Shown: positions 5,338 through 61,800 of the stretch, piece by piece | How positions within the stretch are numbered: position 1 is the stretch's first letter | Layout: each line of letters opens with the position of its first letter | Assembly (NCBI GenBank): GCA_046563655.1 | Contig: CM102283.1 | Location: 1,550,001 to 1,614,000 of the forward strand | Direction: 5' to 3' | Length of the DNA stretch: 64,000 nt | Source of the DNA: Yuukianura sp. NJ FZ-2021 | Lineage: Eukaryota | Translations under genes and position numbers: made by a program | The notes under the pieces: generated by a model | Database searches by the model: none | What the model was told of the DNA's origin: nothing | What the model saw: the letters and a program-made list of their open reading frames with translations, nothing else

Positions 5338-6669
5338 ATGCAAAAAATTTCGCGACTCGTTCTTGCAATACTATTTTTGCAATCATGCCAAGGTCGGATT
5401 TTGTACACCGATTACTCAAATCCAGGTGAAAATGCAGTGCTGCCCAGAAGCAAAGGTACAGTAATGGAATTGTAGTTATTTTTAAAAATTGTTCGCTTTT
5501 ATAAAAAAAAATGCACTGTTTAACATTTTTTTTTCAAAATGTTAGAACTGATTGAACGTGTAATAGTGATTGGGATTGATGGAGCCGGGAGTTTCCATTC
5601 GCCCGAACTCACTCCAAATATCGTTTCGTTTCTGCAATCCGGAACCTACTCCGACATGGCACTCAATGTATTTCCGACCTCCTCTGGTCAAAACTGGGGT
5701 TCCATTATCACTGGTGTCACGCCAGATAAACATGGCGTAACCAACAGTAACATATGGTTACCATACCCAGAAAATTCAACATTTCCCACCATTTTCAAGC
5801 TGATCAACGCCAAGTTCCCGAGTTCTGAGCAGTACAATGTCGCTTCCGATCAACACAATGTCGCTTCTGATCAAAACAATGTCGCTTCCGATCAAAACAT
5901 TATGGCCTCAGACCAGAACAATTTGGCTTCCAATCAAAACAATGTGGCTTCCGATCAAAACAATGTCGCTTCCGATCAAAACAATGTGGCTTCCGATCAA
6001 AACATTATGGCTTCTGATAAGAACAATTTGGCTTCCGATCAAAACATTGTGGCTTCTGATCAGACCAGACCGCTTTCTGATCAAAATATGGCTTCACATC
6101 AAGTCAATGTAGCAGCTTATCAAAACAGCATGGCTTTTGATAAGAACACTTCGGCTTGCTTCGTTGCCTGGGGGCCGATCGCTATCGGATTAGTTGAACG
6201 GTCGCTTCCGGTTGTCAATGTGCTGAGAAGAGACTCCGCTTTGGTTCAACTGCTAACCGAAAACTTTTTTCCCACAATAGGAGGAAATTTCAAATTCCTG
6301 TTTGTTCAGTTGAACGATGTTGACCATGCTGGACATGAGTATGGCTACGGGTCACCAGAATACAACGCCCAATATACAATTACAGACGGATATGTTCAGG
6401 AAATCCTAAATGCCATTGACATGGCAGGCCTTGCTTCGTCTGCATTGGTCGTCATCACAGCTGATCACGGCGGTCAAGGTCAAGGTCACGGTGGGGCATC
6501 TCCTGCTGAAAGCCACGTTCTGTTGGGCATGCGCGGACCGGGCGTTGTGAAAAGATCTTTTGAGCCAGACATGCTTTCCATCCTTGATATTCCCGCTACG
6601 ATACTTGACACGCTCGGAATAGAAGTTCCGAGCAACTTCGACGGCAAAGTGATTCAGTTATTTGAATAA
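5338..6669 (+). CDS. Secreted alkaline-phosphatase-superfamily (nucleotide pyrophosphatase/phosphodiesterase-like) protein, 2 exons
   Basis: Exon 1 encodes a signal peptide (MQKISRLVLAILFLQSCQG); phase-1 intron about 5455-5546. Exon 2 has RVIVIGIDG, PTSSGQNWGSIITGVTPDKHG, DVDHAGH, VITADHGG, GHGG and DIPATILDTLG...FDGK, the metal-ligand motifs of the AlkP superfamily. Confidence 0.85.
5836..6150 (+). repeat. Coding 21-bp (7-aa) tandem repeat, about 11 good plus about 4 degenerate units
   Basis: Units like AATGTCGCTTCCGATCAAAAC encode NVASDQN/IMASDQN/NLASDQN in frame inside the phosphodiesterase ORF. Confidence 0.95.
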
Positions 6670-7287
6670 ATGTAAAACAAAATAAATAAATTAAGTTAAA
6701 TTGACTAACTGGACTTAAATTTAAATTAGGACGTACAGTAATGCCATGTCAAAGTTAATAATTTTCAGTCAGGTTTTAAAAAAAAAAACTTTATTGGGTA
6801 AAAAATTTTTGCTACTGACATATTTGTTCTAAACAGGGTATTAATTTTTGCGAGAAGTGTTGAAAGTAACAAAAAGTTATATTTTTGATAAAAAAAATTG
6901 AGTAAAAAAGAGCACCGTATAAGTGGAGTTTTTTCTTTTAAACATTGAAAAATTTCTCTACAAGTTAAAGTTATTAAATTTGCCAAGTCACTAATGCCTC
7001 TCTATAGACTCTTGATAGTAACGTTTTTCGTGCTAATTACGAAGTTTATTTTTTTGAAATTATAGACAATTTGGAAATTAGCGGTTTTGTCGGGAGAAGG
7101 AAATTTGAAGCCAGGATTAACAGAGAAGCCTCACAAGCGTTTGTGGTTGTACGGTTTCCTTGTTGCCTAATTGGATTTGGATTTTTTGACCAGTTTCAAA
7201 AAATGTTGCACATTTTTTCTTGTGATGCATTTGACAGGCGTAAAATTTCGGTCACAAATTTCATCTAGCTTCATTTTTCCTTCAGCG

Positions 7288-7872
7288 ATGGAACAAAAAG
7301 AACAGTCCAAGACCAGTCCGCCTCTGCAGAAACAACCAACTCTGGTCGGCGACTTAGCGAATGTTCAACAAGTTCGACTTTTGCGACGAGATGACAACTC
7401 AGACGCCGAATCTCTTGTGACGACCGATAACGAGGAAGAGGCACTTATCAAAGATGGTGACGACAGTGACGATGAGAACAAGAAAAGTTTCTGGAATCAA
7501 GGACTGGGTGACTTGACACAGCAAACGGAGACTTTGAGCACGGGGGTCAAGTGCAAATCGATTATGTACTTTTGCTCATCCGGTGAACCAGCGTCTGATG
7601 TGGATGAAGGTGCAATGACAGACTGCGAGGACATCTATGATGCGTCGTCAAGGTCAAACTCTCCGGTAATTCTGCAAGAAGAACCGGGAATTGAAAACTA
7701 CTTCAAGGGAACGCAGTGGCAGTCAACTGAAGTGACGCGTGCATCGGGCCAGGAGTTGAATTTTGACAATACGCATGTGCAGGAGACGAGTTCTGGATGT
7801 AAAAATGGGCAGAACGAAAAAGCAGAAAAAGAAACCAGCAATTCAGAAAATCAAGCGACAAAAATTCTTTGA
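7288..7872 (+). CDS. Hypothetical acidic, probably disordered protein
   Basis: Open 194-codon frame from ATG 7288, preceded by an acceptor-like ttcag. Higher GC than flanks and D/E/S-rich; aataaa downstream near 8027. No recognisable domain. Confidence 0.5.
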   Translation: MEQKEQSKTSPPLQKQPTLVGDLANVQQVRLLRRDDNSDAESLVTTDNEEEALIKDGDDSDDENKKSFWNQGLGDLTQQTETLSTGVKCKSIMYFCSSGEPASDVDEGAMTDCEDIYDASSRSNSPVILQEEPGIENYFKGTQWQSTEVTRASGQELNFDNTHVQETSSGCKNGQNEKAEKETSNSENQATKIL

Positions 7873-17768: not shown

Positions 17769-19526
17769 TGAAACCCTATCTTAAATTTTGAGGATTATGT
17801 CATTAAACTTCGTCAGTCATAGATGTATTTTGAATACGAAGCAAAAACTGTAGTTGACCTCTTACAATAAACGTAAAACAGGAATATGTGCTTCTCAGTT
17901 TGATGAACACAGACGTAATAAATTATTGTTTTTATTTCCGTTTTGTTGGAACTCTTTTTAAGACTTTGACGTGCTGATTTTGATTTGCGGATAATCTCTT
18001 TTTCTTTTTTTGTTATGATGATTCACGCTCATAATATCACTCATAAGCAGAGTGGCAAAACATATTTTCTTACATATTACATATTTAAAAAAAATGTTTC
18101 TAAACAAACTGAGTAAGCTACAACACTTAGTTTTTAGTAGTCTCTTTTTAGGTAAAATCAAAAGCGAATTTTTTAACTACTTTCTCAACAAGCAAACCGA
18201 ATTTACAAATGCTCGAAATTGATAGTCCTGAGCCCTAACTTTAATTTATTAATTAACGACAAAAAATTTTACATCCGTGCCTGCCTGCGTCATTCTTAAT
18301 TCTTAATTTTAATAATTTAAACATTTTAAAACTTTCTTAACTTAAGTCGCAAAACAAGTATTATACATAAAAATCTAAGCAGTGCACTGACGTGTAATAA
18401 TAACCTGTAAATACAGGAAACGTTCAGAATAAAAATGAAAAATGAAAACACAAAATAGAAAAAATATTTAGCAAAATTTAAGCACGAACAACTTTTGTAC
18501 ATGGGCCAGACGGGGCATCAAGCGGTTTGACCCCCAGGGGTCACCAAATGTCAAGGGGTGATTCTATGACAACCCCTTCAAGTAAGGGGTAGTTGGAAAG
18601 CTCTTGACCTCTTGATTTAGAAAATGTACGGGTATCCATATCTATTTTAAGGTGTTTAGCCGGAAAAGATTACTGAATTTCAACCATGAAAAATGTTGCA
18701 AAGTACCAAAAAGTTCAAATCGTTTCATGACAAGCGATAAAACGACTGATAGAAAAGATGTTCCACTCAAAAAGATAAACAACTTTTTTCTCTTGCATTT
18801 TTCTGCGGTATAGCTGATAAGATACCGACCAAAGTGGGAAAACCAATAGACAACTTGTTTATTGCACCCAAAGTTATCCAGCATCTCGGGTTTTTCAATT
18901 TTTTGCAAAAAAATTTCCAAAAATGAAATTGGTCCATCTCAACCTCCATTTCTATGGCAATTTTAGTCCCTTTTTTTAACTTTTTTTTTATTCTAGACTT
19001 TTTATGTATTTTTATGACAATCTGGAGCAACACAGCACCATCGTTAATAGAATAATCCCTCAGGTACTCGAATTTTAAATTCAAATCAAGTCGATCAGTT
19101 GAAAAAAAAATGGAGGAAAATACGTAAATTGAATTGGAGGAAAGCCGTAAACAAAATTGTAGGAAAAAATTAGGAAAAAAAAGGAAAAAATTGTTTTCTT
19201 CCAAAAATTTTGAGGTACGGGGCAAGGTAACTAAACAAAATGATACACCGCATTACTAAGGTAGCCTCACGAGCGGTTTTTTCAAGTGTTTTGGTGAAAT
19301 TTTTTAGTGGGGCGGATTGTTTGTTTTTAACATTTCTGACAACGTTTTTCTTCCCAAAATCGTTGGATGGAGTACAATGTAAATCCCTTCATTGTAACCA
19401 GACAATGCTACCAATCATCGGACCGGTGGTTTAGAATGGTTTTAGGATTGGAAATGGAATACTATACAAGCTTGACGCTTATAATTACTAAAAATTCAAT
19501 CCAACTCCAAGGCAAAGTCCAATATA

Positions 19527-21186
19527 CAGTGGCGGCCAAAATTATTGGGACACCCAGTGTAAAAATTTTTAAACAACGATAACTTTTTAACGAAGTGTCA
19601 TAATTAATAACTCGATACGTCATTTTATTCAGAAAATAGTTCTTTCCAATCTCCCAAGTTTTTAGAACTTGAAGTCAAGCGGTTTATTTTATGGAATTTT
19701 TTAAACTCAAAACGTCAAAATTCTCGCGGACAAAATTATTGGGACAGCTGGGGTTTTGGAGCGAAATCAACAGTTATTGGCATTAGTTTTCCATCGGTAA
19801 GTCACCTAACTTAATTTTTAGTACTTACTAACACTTGTAGTTAATTTTTGATTAGTTTTTCAGAGATGGTTGGCAATATCAAGGAAGTTCCAGGACCGAT
19901 ACGCGACTTAATCATTCAAGGTTGGGTTGGTGACGAAAATGGTACAAAATCAGTTCGTCAGCTGTCCGAATTGTACCACGTACCCAAGTCAACAGTACAT
20001 AACATCATACAAAGGTACCTCAAGACCGGCCATGTCGAAAACAAAGTCGGAAGGGGCCGTAAACCAATTCTTACTGAGAGGGAAGTTCGCCTGATCACCA
20101 AGAAAGTGAAGCTGGACAATCGAGTAAGCGCCGTAGAACTGTCCAAAACACTCAAAAGTGACCTTGACACATAAGTCAGCCCCCGTACTGTTCAAAGAGT
20201 ACTTTGCAATCAGAATTTGAGAGCTTTCAAGCCGTTGCGAAAACCGCTTGTGTCAAAGAAGAATGCAGCCAAGAGATTGAAGTTTGCAAAAGAACACGTT
20301 ATGAAGCCGGTATCGTTTTGGGAAAGAATTTTATGGTCGGACGAGTCAAAGTTCAACGTTTTGGGGTCAGATGGACGAAAATATGTGCGAAGAGGTATTG
20401 GTGAAGCCTTAAAACCAAAGAACCTCAATGTGACTGTGAAACACGGAGGAGGCAGTGTCATGGTTTGGGGCTGCATGGCTTCAAACGGGGCTGGAACCTT
20501 GGAATTTATTAACGGAATTATGGATAAATTCGGCTCACTTCGTGTCAAGGTCACTTTTGAGTGTTTTGGACAGTTCTACGGCGCTTACTCGATTGTCCAG
20601 CTTCACTTTCTTGGTGATCAGGCGAACTTCCCTCTCAGTAAGAATTGGTTTACGGCCCCTTCCGACTTTGTTTTCGACATGGCCGGTCTTGAGGTACCTT
20701 TGTATGATGTTATGTACTGTTGACTTGGGTACGTGGTACAATTCGGACAGCTGACGAACTGATTTTGTACCATTTTCGTCACCAACCCAACCTTGAATGA
20801 TTAAGTCGCGTATCGGTCCTGGAACTTCCTTGATATTGCCAACAATCTCTGAAAAACTAATCAACAATTAACTACAAGTGTTAGTAAGTACTAAAAATTA
20901 AGTTAGGTGACTTACCGATGGAAAACTAATGCCAATAACTGTTGATTTCGCTCCAAAACCCCAGCTGTCCCAATAATTTTGTCCGCGAGAATTTTGACGT
21001 TTTGAGTTAAAAAAAATTCCATAAAATAAACCGCTTGACTTCAAGTTCTAAAAACTTGGGAGATTGGAAAGAACTATTTTCTGAATAAAATGACGTATCG
21101 AGTTATTAATTATGACACTTCGTTAAAAAGTTATCGTTGTTTAAAAATTTTTACACTGGGTGTCCCAATAATTTTGGCCGCCACTG
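19527..21186. mobile_element. Tc1-family DNA transposon derivative rearranged into a long hairpin
   Basis: TA|CAGTGGCGGCCAAAATTATTGGGACAC ... GTGTCCCAATAATTTTGGCCGCCACTG|TA. Segment 19527-20170 is inversely repeated at 20542-21186. Confidence 0.95.
19866..20541 (+). pseudogene. Tc1 transposase, truncated, with in-frame stop
   Basis: Paired-like HTH, GRKPILT, RKPLVS, ILWSDESKF (first catalytic D) and KHGGGSVMVWGC are present. In-frame TAA at 20172-20174. Sequence switches to the inverted arm before the second D and the E of the DDE triad. Confidence 0.92.
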
Positions 21187-22913
21187 TATGTGTCAATTAC
21201 CGCACACTGGCTACAAGTAGCGCCTCATTGTTACCTCAACCAACCATTGCACGATTTTTTAAAATTCTTACCGCTTGGTTACTGGGGCGCACCGCCCCAC
21301 TAAAAAGTTTCACAAAAAAACTAAAAAACCGCTCGTGAGACTACCTTATAATGCGATGTGTCTTTTTGTTTAGTTGCCTTGGTAGGGAGCAAGGCAACTA
21401 AACAAAAAGACACAGGAGCTTTCTAAGGTAGTCTCACGAGCGGTTTTTTCAGCTTTTTTTGTGAAATTTTTTGGTGGGGCGGATTGTTTGTTTTAAAGTT
21501 TTCTGTGACAACGTTTTCTTTCGTGCAATCGTTGGGTGAAATACAAAGTCAATTCCTCTTTTGTAACCACCCAGTATAACCAATCATCATTTAGACTTGT
21601 TTTAGGATTAGAAGATGGAATAATATAAGTTTTATGCTTATAATTGCTAATAATTCAATGCAACTCAATTGCAAATTGTCGATTTTATGTTGAATACTGA
21701 ACATTGGTTACAGGTAGCACCTCATTGTTACCTCAACCAACCTTTGCACGATTTGTACAAATTCATATTTCCTTGGAAACCGGGCAAACCGCCCCACCAA
21801 AAAGTTTCACAAAAAAAGCTAAAAAAACCGCTCGTGAGACTACCTTAGTAATGCGGTGTGTGTTTTTGTTTAGTTGCCTTGGTAGGGAGCAAGGCAACTA
21901 AACAAAAAGACACACCGCATTACTAAGGTAGTCTCACGAGCCGTTTTTTAATTGTTTTTTGCGAAAGTATATAGTGGGGCTGATTGTTTGTTTTTTACGT
22001 TTCTGTGAGAACGTTTTCGTTCGGTTGGACTACAAAGTAAATTCATCCATTGTAACCACCCATTGCAGCCGATCATCCGACTTGTACTTTAGATCAGTTT
22101 TAGGATTGGAAAATGGAATTGTACAAGTTATAGTTATTCAAACTTCATTACGACTCAATGGCAAATAGTTAATTTTGTGCCAAATATCGAACACTGGTTA
22201 CAAGGAACACCTCAAGCAACAAAAGTTACCTCAACCAACTTTTGCACAAATTTATCTCCTTGGATACCACCCCACTATACACTTTCGCAAAAAAAATTGA
22301 AAAAACCGCTCGTGAGACTACCTTATAAGGCTGGTGTGTCTTTTTGTTTAGTTGCCTTGGTAGGGAGTTACTGGACAACCTCTTGTAGCAAATACAATCG
22401 GTTGCTATAGCAACCTTGATGCGGACCAATACAAAAACTGATAAAAGTAGATTTCAGGTAGGAAATTCGCGACGGTAAGACGTCGCGAAGACGGTAAATA
22501 ATAGATTTTCTAAATCAGGAGGTCAAGAGCTTTCCCACGACACCTTACGTGAAGGGGGTTGTCATAGAATGACCCCTTGACATTTGGTGACCCCTGGAGG
22601 TCAAACCGCTTGGTGCCCCGTCTGGACCCTGTACAAGGTTCTCCTATATGTGTCGAGAACACTTGTTTAATTTTTCATTCGAATCGTACACGTCTACCCT
22701 GTCCCTTAAGCGAAGTACGGTAGCCCTTGCGTCACCCGATTCTTTCTTCATTTTTTGAAATTTTCCTTTGAAAGTAGCCAATTCGAAAAATTGAAATGAC
22801 GCTAAACTTGAAATATGGACTTTGTTTTTGACGTAGGTGCTGTACTGTTTTGTCCAACAGTAATCGTATGACAATAAACTGAAAAAGATAAAAACAATTA
22901 TCGTGTCAAGTAA

Positions 22914-31680: not shown

Positions 31681-33552
31681 TTAGTTGTCTAAAGATGGGG
31701 GTGGTCGTGCGTCGTCAATTGTGCGCATGTCGGCGTACCCGGAGTTTTCGATGACCCAGTCATGGAACTCGGCAACTCGTGTCTTTTTTGAAATCAGAAA
31801 AAATTAAAATTGAAAAATTCAGTAACTGGAGCGTAGAATCTTTTACGCTTACATAAAACCCAGGAAAATCTGGCAGCCCACATCCAACACCTATTTTTTT
31901 TTGAAAATGTGAAAATTTGCAAATGAAAATAAGATAGCTTATTTTTTGTTACCTGTTGATACAAGTCCACAGAGATACCTCCTGTTTTTCTTTTCAGGGT
32001 TAAAACATGCCAGTGGTCCACCAGAGTCCCCCTTCGAAAATAAAAAAGAAAAGCAAAAACTAAAATTTGCCCCACCTTTGGCTTCGCTATAACGTTAAAG
32101 TAAAAATTAGCTATTTTTTTTATTAACTTGGCAAGCGTCGATCTTCCCAGATTCAAACCCGGCGCTGCAATTTTACAAAGTAAAACTTAAATATAGCCCA
32201 AAACGTTAAAAAATTAAGGAATTTAAAAAAAAATCACCATATAAGTCCAGCATTAATAAGTGCTTTCAAGTTGTTGTACTTGGCATAAAACTCATAGCAC
32301 TCTTCACGGGAGAATACTTTAACATTGGCCTGTCTCAATACGTCAGGGTAATACAGTGGATCGTCGTTGTCGTTTATTTCCTTCTTTTTCGTATACCCCC
32401 ATCCACTGATCATTGCAATTCCAACTAAAAGGTTACAAAATTGCCAATATGGTTACAAAATTATATGGTTATATGGTATAATTATATGGCCAATATGGTA
32501 AGTGCGCAGAAAGGGCGCAGTAAGTGCGCAGAAAGTGCGCAGAAAGTGCGCAGAAAGTGCGCAGAAAGTGCGCAGATAGTGCGCAGTAAGTTCACAGAAA
32601 GTGCGCAGATAGTGCGCAGTGCAATGTTGTAAAGCTATAGACTATTATAGCAATTCAGGTATTTGCACACATAGTTACGCATGGACTGAAAGTAATTACC
32701 GTCTTCCGGCACAAGAGGAGGCCGATCAATCGGGAGTGGTTGAACGAATTTGTTGTACTTAAACGGCTTGTCTAGCGTTACAATCGCAATGTCAAAGAAA
32801 TTGTACTCAGCTTCATATTTGGGGTGGATTTTGACATCCACTGCTTTCCTCCGTTGCTCATCTCCGTCTACATCACTAACGTCGAAGTCACCAGCGACAT
32901 ACTCATATTTGTCGGTGATCTCCTCCGGAAGCCGTCCACTGATAGAGTGGAAGCAGTCTACAAGAGTATTCCCAAAAGCAGTTTTAAAAAATTCTAAAGT
33001 TTGACATTCCGAAAAAGTGCAGTTACGGGCAGCCGTTAAGACTGTTACGGAGTTGTAGACGGAGCCACCACACATGACGGAGCCCCTGGATTGGATCCCA
33101 ACGATATACGGAATAGCTCCTTTGCTGGACTTACTTCCACCAATCACCTTCTTCTTTGGAATCCTTTGAATTGGTTTCTCATCAGTTGCTGTTAATATAA
33201 ACAAATAAGTGGTAATTAAATTTAGAAAATTAAATTGATTGCAAACATTACAAGGTTAAGAAAATTACTCTCTTACAATTCCGAGACGCCGGGTTAAAAT
33301 GGAATGGTCGCACTTCGCCGTTGGAACTAACTCTAACTGAAATATAAAATAAGATAAAATTAGTTATTTTAATTATATTTTATTATAGTAAATATTATTT
33401 TAATTAATCCTTTACACTATAATTAACTTTTTACCAAACATTTCTTCAAATGGATCTCCGCCACATCCGCCAACTGATTCGTCTTTGTACTCATCATCGT
33501 ACTGGTCAGCCTGAACATGCAGTACACAAAAGATTAAGATATACAAAATCAT
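31681..33552 (-). CDS. Trypsin-like serine protease, copy 2 (multi-exon)
   Basis: K|VIGG, TAAH|C, DIAIV and DACQGDSGGPL; same intron positions as copy 1. Confidence 0.93.
32447..32622. repeat. Intronic minisatellites: ATATGGTTA-like 9-mers, then about 11 copies of the 10-mer AGTGCGCAGA
   Basis: Directly visible tandem arrays inside an intron of protease copy 2; absent from the matching intron of the other copies. Confidence 0.9.
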
Positions 33553-45870: not shown

Positions 45871-48800
45871 ATGGCCCGGAAGAGTATTCGAAAATCCTAC
45901 CGTTCCAAACCGAGATGTGCCAACTGTAATTCAATTTGTTTCAATGAACGATCGTTCTCAAGCGCTTTACCTCGGCTACCTCAATCGTTTGAACCTCCAG
46001 TGACGAAAGGAAAAGGGGATATCACGGTAAGTTAATCTTTGAAATCCCAAAATTAGCAGGATTTTCAATTTGGATCAAACCTAGCATTGCTTGGCAAGCA
46101 AAAGTAACCCTCATGTCATGTCATGTCCAAGGAACGATTCGAATGGAATGTAGTTCGGTAATTAATTAGACGTTTTATTTATTAGGAAGCTGGAGATGCA
46201 CCACAGTGGAGTAACGGGAACCTGGACATGGAGTTACTGCTGGATAAAAAACCCCAACTTGAAGTCGAGGAGGATGGGACAGTACGTACTAAAATGGATG
46301 AAGACGAATATGACAACAATGAATCAATCAGCATTCTAGATGCCTTACTGAAGATCTTTCGATTCCATTGGAAATGCCAGAAACGTCTGCTCATGTCAAC
46401 CAAGATGGAGCAGGATATGCTGACAATCTGTACCCATTGTGCCTACTCACTTTCCAAAATGTATGATGGCTATACCAGCTTCACCGAATCCACTCTGGAA
46501 GCAGGAGGGAAATCGTATCTGTCCTCGTTGATTTTTCCACGTAACGGTCACAAAAATCGTCCAGAGAAAGAAAAGTTTAGAAAGAAATCAAGGCGGATCG
46601 ATGAGTCGGATGAAGACACCGACATTGCTTTGGGGACAATAAAAACATCATTTACTGGCGATTTGAAGGAACTCGCTGCTTGCAAAGTTGAAGTAACAAA
46701 ATTAACCTTCGAAAGCGCTTCAGCTCTTGCAGAAGCAAATGATTCTACTCTTTGCATTCCAGGTACTACTACTAAACATCATTTACTTACTTAAACAAGG
46801 TAACTTCAAGAAGAATTTACTGAGGTTTCTATTTCTATTCCAGAACACATGACCCTGTTTGGACTTGAAACGACCAAGGAGGAAGTATATCCGTCATGGG
46901 ACGACGTCGAAGATGAAGACAAGTATGTTCTATCAATGGTCAACACTGACACTGATCCTCTCAAAGAGAGTACTACTAGTAAATACTTTACAAGATCGAC
47001 TCTCAGCAGTACCTCTACTTCTTCTCTTCGTCCACAACGAAGACGGCGTCGAACAAGCCCTGCATTATTGCTGGATAAGAAGCCAAGGCGGCCCAGGGGA
47101 GTCCCGTCCAACGTAACCGAGTGTCATCATTGTGGGAAGCAGCTAAGGACAAACGTGCTACTGAGACAACACATGCAGGTTTACCATCAAGAGAATTACA
47201 ACTGCCAGTATTGTTCCGAACGACATAGTGACCGGAAGGAGCTCAAGGAACATTTGAATCTCTGTCACGACGATGAGAAGACGGAACAGTGTAAGATATG
47301 TTCCAGGAAATATTTTACGAGACTTGAGCTCAAGAAACATGGACGTATTCATTTGAATCGCCAGAGTGTCACTTGCAGCATTTGCAACGGAACATTCCCG
47401 TCCGACAGGCACTTGAAGGCTCATCAGCTGACTCACGTAAGTTGACCATTCTTTATAGTATACACTTCAACCATCTAGAAAACTTACGATTAATGATAAC
47501 TTTGATGACTAATTTGCTTACGGTTGACTTTAATTAATCTTACAGACTGAAGGACAACCTGAGTTGCCGATTTTCGTCTGTCCAGTCGAAGACTGTAACA
47601 AGCGCTACACGAGGGCTCAGTTTCTCAACAACCATATCCGGTATTTACATGATCGTCGAGGCTTATTTGCTTGCACGTTTCCTGGATGTGAGAAGTCATT
47701 TGGAACAGAAAGTTATCTCAATGCTCATATCGTTTCACACGAATCCACTGGAACTCATCTCTGTGAACTTTGTGGTAAGAACTACAAGCACAAGAAGGAC
47801 TTACGAATTCATGAACAACGAAATCATTCCCAAGTATCCAACAAAGAGGAGCTAAAGGAGTTCAAGTGTGGAGTTTGTCCCAAACGCTACTTCCGTGCTG
47901 ATCATCTGAGGACTCATCGTGTCAAGGCCAATCACTACGTCGGTGGACAAGAACCTGCCCTACCCGATGTTGATTTATTGTCTGTCAATGTTCCACATGA
48001 ATTCAAATGTTCTACTTGCTACAAACTGTTTGTGAGTGACATGGCACTGAAGACTCACGAACAGACTCATGTTGACAACGAAGATGAAGCTGATGGACGA
48101 AAGTTTTCTTGTTCCGAATGTAACCAAAAGTACACAAGTATGAAAACATTAGAGTATCACAAGAGATACATGCATCAGCTCAAAGGTTAGTTCAACTCAA
48201 ATAATCTAAATTGTAGTTATAACGAATTACTTAAGTTTTTAATCAACTACCGATATGTTTTTGCTTATTTTAGGTTCGTACTCGTGTACAATTTGTCCAA
48301 AGTCGTTTGGGAGAGTAAGCTCACTAAAGAGGCATTTGTCCGTTCATTCCAACACACAGCACATTTGCGGTAAGTGGCATCGGACAAATCGTTGACGTTT
48401 GATTAAAAATTTAACTGCACATAAATCGAATGTAATTTAACTAAAATTGGCTTTGAATTTACAGGAGACTGCAATAAGCGATACAAGAACAAGCACGACC
48501 TAATGCACCACTACCGAAGAGAGCACGTCCTCACAGAGATGAACTACGAACACGAGTGTGGTTGTGGAAAACGATTTTATAGAAGAGACATGCTCAGAGC
48601 ACACGTCGTCAAGACTGGTCACGTCGCTGCAAAAAGACGAATCGAAAAAACTAAGGTAGAAGGCCAGCCTCCAGAAAACGCAGAAGTGTCTGTCTACGTT
48701 ATGGAGTCCAGTGAATTCCTGGAAGAAGAAGTTGAAATGGAGGGTGAAGATGGAAGTCAAGAAACTGAAGTGATCATGGAGGACCAACAGAGTGCTGGAG

Positions 48801-49543: not shown

Positions 49544-52500
49544 TTAAAACGTTTCTGAATCACAAGCTTCAGCTGAGTGTCCAAATACTAAAAAAGAAAA
49601 AAAAGGTTAGTTAACTTGTTAAAATTTTGTTTTTCAACTTTTCAAATTTTTCAAACTGATTTCTTTTTGAAAGTTTTTTACCTTCACATGATGTACAATA
49701 GGGCCGACTTTCGCCACGACGTGCGTGATGACGACTGTTAATTTCTTGAGCATCGTTGGATTGTGTTGGACAATCGCCCGTGTCATGACGATCAAACTCC
49801 TGGCAAATATCGCAGTAGAGACGAGAGTTAGCTATTCCTCCCACGAGCAAGGCACCGCTGGATCCAGACCCTAATCCTATGTCGTCAAGTGCGTTCCTTT
49901 TTTCAAAAAATTTTCAAAAAAATTAAAAATTTCGAATTTTCAAAATTCACCGTCACTAAAACGTCGCTACTTCCTACGCCGCCAGTGCCGGTACAATGCA
50001 TGTTTTTTTGAAATCACAATAATTACCTATATCTAACACGACGCTTAGGATTTCCTCCACCCATCAAAATGTCCAATCGTTCCTTCAGCTCTTCGTTTTC
50101 CCTATTAAGGCTGTTGATAACCGAATTGAGAAAGTTGACTTTTTGGCGCTCCTCGGGCGTACATGGCCCCTCTTGTGCCAGTTTCTTTCCAAAGTCATCA
50201 TCGTATGTGCGAGGAAGTTGGGATGGAGGAACCCCTGCAGCTTCCATGGCTTCGGTCAGTTTTGCTTCCAGTACTGCCCGTTGCTTTACTTCTCCTTCAA
50301 CGTTCCGCTGCAAAAAACTTGCCATATCATAAGAATCGAGCTTCTCGCGTGTTTGAACTGCATCTGCAAGTTGTTTCGTGAGAAAATCTTTTCTTCTTTG
50401 CATTTCAGCAAACTTGAGTTCCAGTTGCGACAATTTTTCATTGGCTGTACATGCTGCTCGCTGCATCTCTCTCTCCCGTTCGGTAGATCGTTCAAACTCA
50501 TCTCTCATTTTGTCTAGCATTTTCTCATAATCACAGTACATTGAATAAGACGATTCGTCACACTTTGTAAGTTCGGCTACATGCTCCTGTTGAATCTTTT
50601 CCATTTGCTGTGTGAACTGAACGATTTGCTCTGCGTTTTTACGAACAAGTTCCTCCTTCTGAGACTCCAATGCTTTAATTTTGGCATCCGCACCGTCAGT
50701 ATTTGATTCCAAACGTTTCAGCGTCGTCTCCAATTCAGCGATTTTCTCTTCCTGTTCTTTCGAAATTCTTAACTTCTCTTCTGCCAGTTGAGAAGCGACA
50801 TCTTTTGATTTGGCAAGATCTGACTGTAGCTCAGGAATCATCGAAGAAGTTTTCTCGAGTGCCGTTGTCTTCTCCGTAAGCTTTTCACCTAACTCTTTAG
50901 CTTCGTTTTCTGCAACAGTCAGCTTTTCTTTCAAAATTTGCACAGTCCGATTTGCATCTTCAAGCAAACAGCTCTTCTCATCCAGGCCGCCTTGCGCTGA
51001 TTCTCGAAACTTCGCTAAAGTGGTCTCCACTTCCAATTTTTCAGCTTGAAGTTTTTCCAATTCTGTTTTCAATTTGGCAGAAGTCGAGTCGTGATCAATC
51101 ACACTTTGGCGTAGTTCAGTCAGTTCGGCGTTCAATCCATCAGTCATTGATTTCGCCTTTTCAAGAGCCGATTTCATCGATTCCATTTCTGCTCGACAGT
51201 CTTCTTGCGATTTCGAGTTTTCGGTGGCAATTGCTTCTTTCTCTGCTAAGGTTTTTGCAATTATGGCTTCAAGTTCCACTTTTTCAGCTTGAAATTTTTG
51301 CATCTGAGACTCCAGTTTAACAGTATTGGCATCATGTTCAATCAAACGTTCGCGCAACTGGACGAGTTCGGCATTCAATCCTGCAGTCATCGATTTTGCA
51401 CCTTCTTCTGCCAATTGCATAGAGTCAATTTCAGCTCGAGATTCTTCTAACTTCTTCTTCAATTCTTCCACTGTAGTCTCGTAATTGGAAATTACGTGAG
51501 AAAGTTCTTCATTTTTGACAAACATTTCCGCCTTTTCCTTTTGAATCTTCTCCATCTCCTTCGCAGACAGAGTGACTTGCTCTGCGTTTTTGCGAAGAAG
51601 CTCCTCTTGCTGAGACTCCAATTCTTTGACTTTGGCATCCGAACGGGCAGCATTTGACTCCAGAAGTTTCAGCGTCGTCTCCAATTCAGCGATTTTCTCT
51701 TCCAGTTCCTTCGAAATTCTTAACTTCTCTTGCACCAGTTGAGCAGCAGCATCTTTTGATTTGGCAAGATCTGACTGTAGCTCAGGAATCATGGAAGAAG
51801 TTTTCTCCAATGCAGTTGTCTTCTCCGTAAGTTTTTCAGCTAAATCCTTCGCCTCGCCTTCTGCAACAGTCAGCCTTTCTTTCAAAATTTGCACAGAGCG
51901 ATTTGCATCTTCAAGCAAACAGCTCTTCTCATCCAGGCCGCCTTGCGCTGATTCTCGAAACTTTGCTAACGTCGTCTCCACTTCCAATTTTTCCGCATTA
52001 AGTTTTTCCATTTTTGATTCCAGTTTAACAGTATTGGCATTATGGTCAATCAAACTTTCGCGCAACTGGACCAGTTCGGCATTCAATCCTGTAGTCATCG
52101 ATTTTAAATCTTCTTCGGCCAATTGCATAGAGTCAATTTCTGCTCGAGATTCTTCTAACTTCTTCTTCATGTCTTCCAATGTAGCTTCGTAATTTGAAAT
52201 GACGCGAGACATTTCTTCATTTTTGGCAAGCAGGTCCGTTTTTTCCTTTTGAATCTTCTCCATCTCCATCGCTGACAGAGCGACTTGCTCTGCGTTTTTA
52301 GAAAGAAGCTCCTCCTGCTTAGACTCAAATTCTTTGATTCTGGCATCCGAACCGGCAGTATTAGATTCCACAAGTTTCAGCGTCATCTCCAATTCAGCGT
52401 TTTTCTCTTCCAGTTCCTTCGAAATTCTTAACTTCTCTTCTGTCAGTTGAGCAGCGACATCTTTTGATTTGGCAAGATCTGACTGTAGCTCGGGAATCAT

Positions 52501-55500
52501 CGAAGACGTTTTCTCTAACGCAGTTTTCTTCTCCGTAAGTTTTTCCCCTAACTCCTTCGCTTCGTTTTCTGCAATTGCCAACTTTTCTTTCAAAATTTGC
52601 ACAGAGCGATTGGCATCTTCAAGTAAGCAGCTCTTTTCATCCAGACCGCCTTGCGCTGATTCTCGAAACGTCGCTAAAGTCGTCTCCGCTTCCAATTTTT
52701 CAGCTTGAAGTTTTTCCATTTCTGTTTTCAATTTGGCAGTAGTCGAGTCATGGTCAATCACTTTTTGGCGTAGTTCAGTCAGTTCGGCGTTCAATTCTTC
52801 AGTCATTGATTTGGCTTTTTCGAAAGCCAATTGCATAGATTCAATTTCCGCTCGACAGACTTCTTGCAGTTTCTCATTTTCGATGACAATTGTCTCCTTT
52901 TCTTCAGTAGTTTTCGTAATTATTGCCTTAAGTTCCAGTATTTCTACTTCTTTTTGGTTAGTTTGCTCGATTATTATAGTTTGACTAGACTTTAGTTGAC
53001 CTTCCAACTCCGCAGTCCTTTCAGCCATCTTCACCAACTCCGATTCTTTCGCCTTCAGCTCAGCTCGAAGCGATTCCTGCACATTGAGCAAGATTAGCTG
53101 AGAGTCTGACGACTCTTTTCGGAGTTGGACTTTTAAATTGTCAATTTGACTTTTGTACTTTTGTTCATACTCACTTAGAGAAGAGTCCTTGAGAGCTGAC
53201 ATGGCAGTGAGCTGCTCTAAGGCCGATTTAAGCTCCTCCTCCAACTCCTCCTTCGAAATCTGCATTTCTTTCATTTCAAATTCAATTTTGCCTCGGTATT
53301 CTGCAAGGTTGGCTTCCTTAGCTGCACTGTCTTCCAGCTTCATCGTCAATTCTTTCAATTCGGTCCGGAGTGTTTGAACTTCTGATTGTGCTGCGGTGAG
53401 CTGCTTGATTTGGTCTGCATTTGCTGAGAGTTCAGCTCGAAGGCGAACAGTCTCAGCCTCTGCTGCTTGTAATTTTTGCGTTGTGTCTTCATGAGCAACG
53501 AGTGCAGCTTGAGCCTTCTCCAGTTCTGCCTTGAGTGAAATCAACTCACGATCAAGTTTCGACTGGGCCACGGTTCTTTCCAACACTTCGGCACTGAGTC
53601 GTGTCACTTCTTCATCTCGACTCTCGTGACCCGTAATCTGTGACTGGAGATCATTGTGATAAATCTTCTCCTCTTCGTAAGAAAACTGAAGGTCATCTAG
53701 CTTCCGTGTGAGATCATCGATTCTAGCAACCAGAGCGTCGTTTGCTGCCTTTTGAACTTTGGCTTCTTCTTTGTACCGCTCAACATCAGCTCGCAGAGCT
53801 TCAGCGGCCTTCACAAAAAATCAAAAAACTTTCGGTTAGGTATTATTTAAAAAATAAAACTTTCGTTTTCCAAATTTGTTCATTTTTGTACCTGATCAAT
53901 CGGAGCCGGTTGTTGACTTTTTTGAGCAAGAAGTTTATTGAGTTGCACCAATTCCTGTCGATCAATTTCCTTTTCCTGCATCAGCTGATCCAAGTGAATC
54001 TCCATCTCTCTCATTGCGGACTTTTAACCAAAACGATTTTCATTTAGCACGGTATGAATACATGAATTTTGTAAAAATCAGTCAACAAATCTAATTCGTC
54101 AAGCTGACGACTGGGTCAAGGTCACCTAATTGCTAATTTCATTCGAAACACTTCCGGTTTCTATTCTATTTTGGTTTATTTATTTGCTTATTATCTTTAA
54201 TTACGGGTATCATTTTGTATTTTATTTTCAAAAGATGAAAATAAAGATTAATAAAAGATTTCCAAGAAAAGCTGCATTCCGGCTCCAACTGCAACTCGAG
54301 CGCTCACTGAATACTGAAAGGTCACTCATCGCTCCACTCACGAGAATCTTTAAAAGTAGTCGCTATCGGTGGATCGTTCCTAAAATTTATCACAATTGAC
54401 CGAATTCTACTTCTTACACAAGCGTTCGGTCTAATGCTTAATACTGGCCACATTTATCATTTGGAGACATGTACTTTGTTAACATTCTACAAATGCGTTT
54501 GTTATTCGTTAGCAATGACGTTTGACCTTGACCCCAGCCGACACTTTGCGTGTTAGACTATGTGACACAGAGTAAGCAATAATTTCAACCTGGAGGCCAC
54601 AAGTAGGTAAGCATTTGCTGTTAGTCTGTCCCAAGGACGGTGGAGGTGGAGGTAGCTTCTACAAGTATCGATCCATCAATTAAAATGCATGTAAACATAC
54701 AAATCTAATTTCAAATCACATTCTGCATGTAGTGCTTACACGAACGCTGCGAACGTTGCGTGACGCTGATGACATGACGCTGGAGAGGTTAGAGGCCAGT
54801 GATTCCTTAGATCCGAATCGTCTGATGGACGAAGGTGGACGTTTATTTGCAGGAGAGCTGCTCACTTTTGATACTGGAGCGAAAAGGCCAAACTTCGGAG
54901 CACATGAGAAGTATCTGCGAATAAAAAAATTTGGAAATTCAAAATAACGAAAAAATTATGAACAACTACCATTCAAAAAGTCTTTTTGCCTTTTTTGTTG
55001 TCTATTACCTTTTGCCTTGTACCGATCCATCGTTTTTTCCTGAAATTTTCAAAAGCAAAAGTCATTCCATAATCATCAAAAGTTTAGAACTAAAAAATTC
55101 AAATGTAAACAATGTCTGACCTTGAGGTTGATCCAACTCGATTCCCGCCCATTCTCCTTCAGCAAATTCCGTCGTACCGAGGTATCGCAGGACTCCTCTC
55201 TTTGTTCCACTCGTAGAACTTTGGACAATAACACGATCTCCTAACTTGAGAGCAGCTCCAGGAGACAGTGTCGGACTTCCAACACGATACTGTGCTGGTG
55301 TCGTCATTCCAGGACTGGTCGGAGTCACGCCAAAGGGAGACGGTGACCGTTGTCTCTCTACGAGACACCGCGGCGGTGTAGCTCCATGTACTTCGCATAG
55401 TTTCGATGGGTCAATTGGAATTAGCGGTTGACGAGACAAACGAGTTAGTTTAGTAAACATTCCATGGAGTTGGTCGCACTGAAAATATCGAACTCCGGAG

Positions 55501-58899: not shown

Positions 58900-61800
58900 A
58901 TGGATTCGTCGGAAATCAAGAGTGCATTGAAACAAGCGAAAGGGATTCTGTCTAAAGGCGACAACGGTCAGGAAGCACTGAACATTCTTCGGGTAAGCAA
59001 CCTCACCCGTTAACTCCAATTGTTGAGTATTATAAACGTTAATGATCGATTGTGCCCTTTTAGCAAGTAATCAAAAACGATGCAAACAACTACCAAGCAC
59101 TGGTTCTTGAGGGAGCTGCATTACAACAGATTGGAAAAGGAACACAAAGTCTCCAGTCGTACAGGAAGGCAATTGCGTTGAATCCAAAACATTTTCTTGC
59201 CTGGCAGGGAATTGTTGCTCATTATGAGAAAAGAGGGGTCAAAGAGCATGAAGATCTGATTGAGGCCTACAAAAATATCAGCAAATACTACGAGAAGTAA
59301 GCGATTCATTTATTCTATTTTATATTTTAATTAATCAATTTTTTCTTGAATCAATAATGCTTTTCGTTCTGTTAGGGATGACGACAAATCGAAGTACGTT
59401 GAAGCTAGGTTGAAGTATGTTGGCCAGTTGCAGTCGCAAAACTTGTTTCCTCAGGCACTCCGAGTGCTTCTTAGCCTCATCAAATCCTACGGAACTAACA
59501 TCCAAATATCCCAGTCAGCTGTTGGTATCTTGAGTCAAATGAGCAATTTGGAAGACGAGGAAGAGGCTTTGGTAATTTATGTCTTCAACACTAAAATACT
59601 TGAAAAATTTCTTATATTTTTATTCCTTAGTACGTGACTTGTCTTCGCAACTTGCATGAAACAGCTTCTGCAACGGACGAGCAATACCGAAAGTACTTTC
59701 AACTTCTTTACAAGCAATCCAAGTTTGCTGAACTGGAAGACGTTTGTCGCGAATTGAATCCTCGATTCAACACATTCTACTACCCCCTGGACTATCTCTG
59801 TCGCTTGTACATTGAGAAGACGTTGAGTGACGAAGGAGTTGAACTCATCCCATCATGGATCCAAAAGCTATTTAAACTATATCCGTCCAGCTCATTCGGC
59901 AGTTTTGCCCAAGGCAAAATCTTTTTCGAAACTGGAATGTATCTGGATGCAATTACATGGCTAAAGCAAGGAACCGAGTCAAAGTTTCATGAAGAAGCTG
60001 TCTACCTGCTCATTCTCTCGTATCAGAAGATTTGGGATTTTGAACAAGCCGAAGACTATGCACTGAGGATGCTCAAGGTTACTAATCTGAGAGATTCTAA
60101 CAGATTCCTCCTTGCACTGGCCAATGCGTACATTCAACAGCAAAAGTTCAAGGAAGCTATAAACACTTTGCAAAATACTGCTCCTAGTGAAGAGATGAAC
60201 GTCCTCCAAGCTTTGATATTTTACGAAGAAGGAAAATTTGAAGACTTCCAGCAGATCTGTGTTCTAACAAATGACTGGAGGCTGGAACTTTGTTCTCTCA
60301 AACTGGACGTTACTAATGGATGCGAAGATGCTGCCGATCGCTTCCTGCAATTATCAGAGAAGTATCCAAACAACCTTGACCTCTTGCTGCTCATCGGAAT
60401 GGCCCTCAGAAAACTCGGATTATTCGATGAAGCCCTACATGCTTTTCAGCAGGTGAGGTCAAAGGTCACCTAAGTTACACTGTTAAACCTAGCAAAACCT
60501 CATCTTAACTTACATTTTTGTGTTTCAGTGCCTCTGCCTTTTCAAATCTCATCCAATACTGCTGATGGAACTAGCAGAGATGTTCAAAGAGGAAGAAGAG
60601 TATACGACGGCCTTGACCTATTTGAAATCTGCTTATAAAGCACTTCCGTCTTCTCAAATTGGCATGCGTCTCTCTGATCTTTATTTTCAACTCGGTGAAG
60701 TCGTAAGGAAACACTCGAAGAGTTATTCATATCTTTGGTTTTAATTAACTTACTAATTAGTTTTCACTTTTCAATATTTGACTTTGAAACTAGGAAGAAA
60801 ACAAAGCTCTGTTGAAGCAAGCTACGAAGACTTTGAAAAAGACAAAGTCCAAGTGGGCGTGGCTTCGCCTCGGAATGTTGTATCTGGAACTGAAAGATCC
60901 AAGCGAAGCTGTTTCAGCTCTGCAATCTGCTATTCGAACTGACATTGGAGATTGGTAAACTAGAAATCTTTGATTAATCAATCATTTTGTATTACTGCAA
61001 CGTTACCTGAACATAACATTATGAATTTGAATTCTAGTCATGTTTGGGAGACACTAGCAGAGGCCTACTATGCTCGAGGTTCTTACGAAGCTTCACTGAA
61101 AGCTTTTGAGCAGTGTTTAAAACTAGGTGCAGATCCGACCTACCCCAACTTCAAAATCGGCGTGATTCAGCGTCAGCTGGGAGAAGAGGAAGATGCTATC
61201 ACGACTCTGTCGAATCTTCCAGACTATACTCCAGCGGTAGTGGAATTGGCAAGAACTTATTTACAAATTGCGAGTAAAAAGTATGATGAAGGACTCAGTA
61301 TGGCTGTCATAACTGCGTTGAATCAAGCTTTCAAAATGTCTGCCAGGTAAACGAAAATTTTTTGGAAATATGTTTTTCTTTATCATTCACCTTAAAGTGG
61401 ATATTCAATTTCGATTTTTTTTTTGCTTTAGAGTGATGAATTCTCCTGAGCAACTTTTGGGTTTGACCTTGATGTCAGATGCAATTCTGCTCGGAGGTCA
61501 ACTTAGCCCAAACTCCGTGTTTTCCATTCCGGCGTCACTTATGCCCCAAAAGAGTGACGATGAAGTACAAGTTTCCGTTGAGGAACTTTTGAGGCTTGGT
61601 CTAAGGTTAGTTTCTACAATTACTTAACTTATATTAACACTAAATTATTGGATTTAGTTTAATTTTGGTATGATTAATTATTGTAATTACTTTAGAATTG
61701 CAGCCATTGTGATCAAGAACTCTGACTCGAAGCACTTGATTGCGTTTCAGCATTTTGTTATGGGAAAAATCTATTTACTACTTTACCAAAAGCTGTCTCT

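Follow-up and report, generated by a model that had tools for sequence, protein, structure and literature searches.

The 64-kb stretch of DNA analysed here (the window) carries at positions 19527–21186 an element of 1660 bp, the ends of which read TA/CAGTGG...CCACTG/TA (Table 1). Both TA-flanked ends are kept, as a preliminary description of this DNA had proposed, and the 3' half of the element is indeed exchanged for an inverted copy of its 5' end; the arms that result contain 316 bp of inverted coding sequence. Motif and blastn searches placed a single copy of the element in the 64-kb window.

The arms had been described as near-identical and as lying at 19527–20170 and 20542–21186. Over these 644/645 nt they differ by three substitutions (19703, 19847 and 19868) and one indel (19697), and a repeat search returned them as two blocks that are 99 and 100% complementary. 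The arms and the loop between them stand as first described, but not their limits. The combination of blastn and global alignment adds about 11 nt to each arm (the alignment has 649 matches in 656 columns) and thereby moves the rearrangement junction from 20541/20542 to 20531/20532 and shortens the loop from 371 to 350 nt. An inverted repeat of 650 bp with 99% identity lies well outside what chance would produce. The differences between the arms are bunched, with about four in the 11 nt at the junction (20171–20181 against 20532–20541) and four in the other 644 nt. On the junction side, two neighbouring substitutions in the left arm make a TAA codon; the right arm has lost 1 nt there and carries one substitution. 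This cluster may be the scar of error-prone synthesis during the rearrangement, or may be due to chance.

Table 1. Features of the element, and public-run contigs that cross its rearrangement junction.
Feature	Positions	Strand	Basis or remark
Left TA, target-site duplication	19525–19526	.	Sequence; single TA-containing site in neighbouring repeat units; empty-site contigs
Left arm, 655 nt: natural left TIR, 5' UTR and transposase codons 1–105	19527–20181	+	
Outer 21-nt direct repeat, left end; presumed transposase-binding site	19532–19552	+	Motif search
Inner 21-nt direct repeat, left end; inner limit of the ~220-bp natural IR/DR-type TIR	19726–19746	+	
Putative 67-nt 5'-UTR intron, GTAAGT...TACTAAC...TTTTCAG	19797–19863	+	Motifs in the sequence only
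N-terminal transposase fragment, 102 codons, paired-like HTH; ends at copy-private TAA	19866–20174	+	
Remaining transposase frame: HTH_Tnp_Tc3_2 and first catalytic D (20340–20342); ends MDKF	20175–20531	+	
Unique fold-back loop, 350 nt	20182–20531	+	blastn, global alignment
Rearrangement junction, where transposase codon 222 meets position 20181 in reverse complement	20531–20532	.	Public-run contigs
Right arm, 655 nt: left arm inverted; ATG to ATT; 1-nt deletion near inner end	20532–21186	-	
Inner direct repeat, right end (mirror)	20966–20986	-	
Outer direct repeat, right end (mirror)	21161–21181	-	
Right TA, target-site duplication	21187–21188	.	Sequence, neighbouring repeat units
Junction contig, X1 record 4	20299–20563		Depth 110.5
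Junction contig, X3 record 19	20141–20571		Depth 130.2
Junction contig, X4 record 29	20451–20571		Depth 155.6

Each end of the element carries an outer and an inner direct repeat, and the 21-nt motif has four matches within the 64-kb window against 0.00 expected. CAGTG-type termini with two direct repeats per end are found in the Tc1-like IR/DR group, and the repeats are presumed to bind transposase. Judged by the layout of the two repeats, the natural TIR here is about 220 bp long; the rest of each arm is 435 bp of 5' UTR and 105 transposase codons. Members of the Sleeping Beauty group are described in PMC5224488 as having two binding direct repeats per end in a TIR of about 220–230 bp, a TA target and a paired-like DNA-binding domain. 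Our element is like them in its paired direct repeats, TIR size, TA target and paired-like HTH; it is unlike them in that the catalytic core is missing and the 'second left end' has 435 extra base pairs of UTR and coding sequence. A search for a related full-length locus that would give the natural TIR length produced 51 pattern matches, of which none was confirmed. The 26-nt terminal pattern of the element had no match in metagenome contigs and none in viral contigs, and Rfam gave no match over the whole window at the gathering threshold.

The transposase frame that begins in the left arm is interrupted by an in-frame TAA at 20172–20174, leaving an open reading frame of 102 amino acids (19866–20171), and the corresponding start in the right arm is isoleucine instead of methionine (SEIVGNIK against SEMVGNIK). 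The translated frames thus confirm both the stop codon and the right-arm ATT for ATG that had been noted earlier, as well as the existence of an open DNA-binding fragment of about 102 amino acids in the left arm. When the TAA is read through (as X), the product has 222 amino acids and matches PF01498 in Pfam with an E value of 7.5e-13; matches to HTH_SB and HTH_32 are weaker and fall below the curated cut-offs. The putative 5'-UTR intron ends 2 nt before the ATG, is mirrored in the right arm and includes the branch-like motif TACTAAC.

A protein search returned 839 homologues at E <= 1e-5, the best of which (346 amino acids) is 55% identical, and the matches with a name are Tc1/Tcb1 transposases of springtail and spider. 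We aligned the fragment with six Tc1-like transposases of 343–347 amino acids, to which it is 50–55% identical. The first catalytic aspartate is kept (D159). The fragment breaks off at MDKF; it lacks about 123 residues and does not reach the FQQDNDPKH and NPIEHLW blocks that hold the second D and the E, whose absence had been reported in the preliminary description. With only the first D left the DD34E core is incomplete, which makes the element a non-autonomous derivative and not an autonomous member of its group; with the second D and the E gone, active transposase cannot be made. No full-length member of the exact family was retrieved by the protein search, with its best protein at 55% identity, and a source of transposase acting in trans is therefore assumed.

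We turn to the insertion site. When the flanks were joined in silico, with no element and one TA, positions 3–600 of the joined sequence aligned contiguously to 21396–21988 of the window (80.6% over 607 columns) and the joined flanks also aligned to 21896–22367 at 74%. In these alignments the intact units carry one TA-containing site at the insertion point. Host repeat units of about 500 bp therefore run unbroken across this point, which indicates a discrete TA insertion.

The surroundings of the element are a tandem array of these units, 74–81% alike (19214–19526 and 21187–22367), and each unit has a palindrome of about 190 bp, for example at 21292–21482. A Pfam search of the window frames recognized no genes within about 10 kb of the element. 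Farther away there are fragments of host genes at 5524–7872 (+), 32635–33255 (-), 47534–48190 (+) and 59631–60473 (+); the families represented are type I phosphodiesterase/nucleotide pyrophosphatase, trypsin, C2H2 zinc-finger and TPR/APC3, and they identify the window as nuclear DNA of an animal. An unbroken frame of 1265 codons on the reverse strand (50023–53820) is rich in E, L, K and A, has the look of a coiled coil and gave no Pfam match at E <= 0.001.

Public sequencing runs provide a further view of the locus. Five DNA runs contain 40–51% of the sampled words, and the contigs of X1–X4 were compared with the window. Four of the runs come from one sample (organism A), and X3 comes from another study, dated 2021, with organism label B. 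Uncovered stretches, such as 20820–21001 in X2–X4, were left out of the comparison. Since the arms share words, run cover within them is not assignable to one arm. There are 32 listed contig pieces and 759 further ones, and our statements on the junction rest on the pieces listed. Among these, the junction at 20531/20532 is crossed in at least three of the four runs and in both studies by contigs that continue for at least 31 letters to either side (Table 1); the boundary from the left arm to the loop is crossed by X3 record 19 too, and by X1 record 3. No crossing of the junction is present among the X2 pieces listed, and none of the pieces listed reaches from one end of the element to the other or covers a joint between flank and arm as it stands in the window.

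Apparently perfect palindromes are a familiar type of artefact, and the window may itself have been assembled from the runs of sample S1. Both points would suit a palindromic chimera produced by fold-back in long reads or in a library, the possibility that the preliminary description had named for checking. The presence of the junction in X3, with its other label, study and year, as well as in X1 and X4 speaks against this, and so do the substitutions and the indel between the arms, the cluster of differences beside the junction and the proper TA duplication at the termini relative to empty paralogues. We conclude that the junction is not a chimera; an assembly artefact is the least probable of the explanations that we considered.

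Element-free contigs that run from flank to flank occur in all four runs (19509 to 21187, 19516 to 21187 and 19529 to 21208). Most of them have many differences from the window and so represent paralogous units, but one flank-to-flank contig of X1 (depth 5.4) could be an empty allele. The words of the array have a summed depth of 46,466 in X2 at 21366–21456, compared with about 11 on unique flank, and the array is likely to be a very abundant satellite-like or MITE-like family.

Depth is informative about the element itself. The flank contigs have depths of 5.6 (X1 record 1), 8.07 (X3 record 17) and 5.82 (X4 record 24), and the junction contigs of the same runs are about 16–27 times as deep, a ratio of mean word depths that is not a copy number. 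From this excess the hairpin form is probably multi-copy. In addition, X3 record 19 differs from the window at seven positions and hence represents copies other than that of the window. Over all, the window copy is about 0.3–1.5% different from the run contigs. The hairpin form is probably present in many copies, of the order of tens, as a mobilized subfamily. We also looked in the X3 contigs for homogenization of the arms (five differences in 350 loop nt against two in 676 arm nt; Fisher p = 0.049) and rejected it, the signal being too weak and confounded by subfamily structure.

A simpler history would be that of a one-off dead copy, rearranged in place and never moved as a hairpin, with local or segmental duplication as the source of the depth. 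This would agree with the single element in the window, with its tandemly repeated surroundings and with the contig pieces listed, none of which shows a second insertion site that belongs specifically to the hairpin form. The array itself argues otherwise, since two neighbouring units of about 500 bp lie in the window without the element; the local repeat thus did not co-amplify it. The excess depth of the junction contigs recurs in three runs that span two organism labels and two studies, and the seven differences of X3 record 19 point to distinct copies. We therefore regard a one-off copy as improbable. The earlier suggestion that the element is mobilizable in trans gains support from these data, indirectly, through the depth of the junction contigs and the intact paralogous empty sites.

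A second form is also present in the runs: record 30 of X4 (566 nt, depth 53.9) matches the window over 20451–20531, diverges at 20531 and rejoins it at 20966, at the inner repeat of the right end. In X2 a joint links 19746 to 20531 on opposite strands and, as 19746 mirrors 20966, it may belong to the same form. About 446 letters would separate the matched parts of X4 record 30, a length that fits the 116 or more missing codons plus a short 3' UTR. We infer that X4 record 30 is the ordinary full-length form, which would measure about 1.67 kb. Within X4, the contig over the junction is deeper than this second form (155.6 against 53.9). The idea that relatives might naturally have TIRs as long as the arms described here is refuted by the natural TIR of about 220 bp and by a contig form that leaves the window at 20531 and returns only at 20966.

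The run contigs bear on the truncated protein as well. At 20171–20172 the contigs of all four runs read C and G (20171 A>C, 20172 T>G), giving GAA where the window copy has TAA. The stop is thus private to the window copy and the 102-residue product is not a family feature. This matters for the proposal that a DNA-binding-only product of KP type, of 102 amino acids or about 286 without the stop, would occupy the repeats and poison transposition. Its basis is the open, ATG-initiated 102-residue frame with HTH_SB/HTH_32 signals, and copies with GAA at codon 103 could continue to a stop at 20721–20723 (frame 20175–20723). Against it, the private stop at codon 103 cuts inside the second HTH, the PF01498 matches start after it and the 102-residue piece has Pfam scores below the curated cut-offs. 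The dominant-negative peptide of the preliminary description is accordingly weakened: the frame is there, its status as a property of the family is not, and we think a protein repressor very unlikely.

Our preferred reading, to which we assign a probability of roughly 0.8, is that the element is a non-autonomous fold-back derivative with two left ends, derived from a Tc1 element of IR/DR type in the genome of an animal, probably an arthropod, and moved in trans. In one rearrangement, an inverted copy of the first 655 bp would have taken the place of everything 3' of transposase codon 222. The likely cause would be a template switch in gap repair, or an aberrant transposition reaction in which two left ends took part. 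The complete pair of outer and inner repeats at both ends should allow the transposase of full-length members to cut and paste the element. Tc1/mariner transposons with two identical preferred ends move at least as well as natural ones according to PMC4505599, where they serve mariner and, by citation, also Sleeping Beauty as substrates that are good or better; the element resembles such laboratory transposons with two identical ends, which are efficient substrates. Mobilization in trans would then have amplified the derivative to roughly tens of copies, as the depth and the empty sites suggest. The window copy landed at a TA within a tandemly repeated host unit of about 500 bp.

Elements of related design have been described in other organisms. 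Within the Tc1/mariner superfamily, Tc4 and Tc7 of C. elegans are non-autonomous elements of the fold-back and 'hitch-hiking' kind. The present element is like them in that it consists mostly of two long inverted arms with a short unique loop, has no working transposase and is inserted at TA; movement in trans by a related transposase, here suggested by contig depth and empty sites, would be a further likeness. Its fold-back character is seen in two 655-nt arms within 1660 nt and a truncated transposase with a stop. Unlike the non-coding arms of Tc4 and Tc7, those described here are a recent and recognizable inverted duplication of the promoter region of the parent and of 105 transposase codons.

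Mu killer, a derivative of maize MuDR, offers a second comparison, since there too the inverted duplication takes in the TIR and extends over the 5' portion of the transposase gene. It belongs to a different superfamily and to a plant, and its hairpin transcript is proposed to start from the promoter of a flanking gene. Mu killer is a single locus, whereas our derivative appears to be multi-copy, keeps both transposable ends and resides in an animal. Silencing by Mu killer was shown by experiment; the present element is described from its structure and from DNA contigs.

Composite insertions of Ac/Ds likewise contain an inverted duplication of transposon sequence and provide a plausible model of origin and effect (10.1101/2020.01.07.897926). 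They are large, confined to one locus and of the hAT superfamily, whereas the element here is compact, of parental length (1660 bp) and has clean ends. Long inverted repeats are also shared with the hpRNA loci of Drosophila, described in PMC10317233 as endogenous Dicer substrates against selfish genes, and with palindromic mariner-derived MITEs that yield small RNAs. The hpRNA loci of that work are defined by small-RNA data and their targets are meiotic drive genes (PMC10317233), in contrast to an element seen here as DNA. Our searches of the open-access literature turned up no Tc1 derivative of an animal that carries its own coding 5' end in inverted duplicate and has been amplified.

For RNA of the whole element the predicted minimum free energy is -1294 kcal/mol, compared with -418 for ten shuffles, and the predicted fold has 649 arm–arm pairs. 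On the forward strand the first AATAAA past the left arm is at 21025, so that a transcript from the left arm would include most of the antisense arm. On the reverse strand there is an AATAAA inside the loop, at 20510, and transcripts from the right arm may end before folding. A transcript from the left arm or from upstream would, by prediction, fold into a hairpin with a stem of about 500–650 bp. The predicted hairpin is homologous to the 5' UTR and DNA-binding-domain mRNA of the family and would be a Dicer substrate. On this model, any silencing of the family would most likely be a by-product of the hairpin structure.

It is plausible, by analogy with other systems, that the element is instead a functional silencer of its family, in which long hairpin RNA would be cut by Dicer to siRNAs and the transposase mRNA destroyed or the chromatin of the family silenced. 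The transposase of the family spreads the element under this proposal, so that a negative feedback loop would form. Precedents exist: inverted duplications of Ac that arise by aberrant or alternative transposition are reported to give dsRNA and siRNAs and to silence Ac (10.1101/2020.01.07.897926), and fold-back RNA from Tc1 read-through is said in a review to feed RNAi in C. elegans (PMC3878927). The extremely stable predicted stem, the forward strand free of AATAAA between the left arm and 21025, and the greater depth of the junction contig relative to the second form in X4 are all in keeping with such a role. Nevertheless, the family looks young from the low divergence of the window copy and is not obviously shut down, the reverse-strand AATAAA could end right-arm transcripts before the hairpin is made, and plain non-autonomous parasitism accounts for the amplification equally well. 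We judge a silencing function unlikely, though less so than a protein repressor or a one-off copy. Slightly more doubtful again is the fuller version, a self-spreading RNAi trigger, in which transposase would copy the element and each copy would make hairpin RNA against the mRNA of the transposase 5' UTR and DNA-binding domain.

Little is understood of how a DNA transposon that has just become active is first recognized by an animal genome, and the best-documented triggers, Mu killer and the composite insertions of Ac, are single plant loci. A compact Tc1 derivative that keeps both ends and has a stem of about 650 bp, drawn from the promoter region and coding 5' end, is a testable candidate for an animal trigger. 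Were the self-spreading trigger real, more transposase activity would bring a larger dose of silencer, a negative feedback built into the family; the element would be a natural, mobile animal counterpart of Mu killer and could explain the first recognition and shutdown of a young Tc1 family. Even without small RNA, the non-autonomous derivative that we favour provides a clean natural example of a fold-back form with two left ends arising from an IR/DR element, and of a palindrome that, with its 350-bp spacer, has lasted in the genome and has apparently spread.
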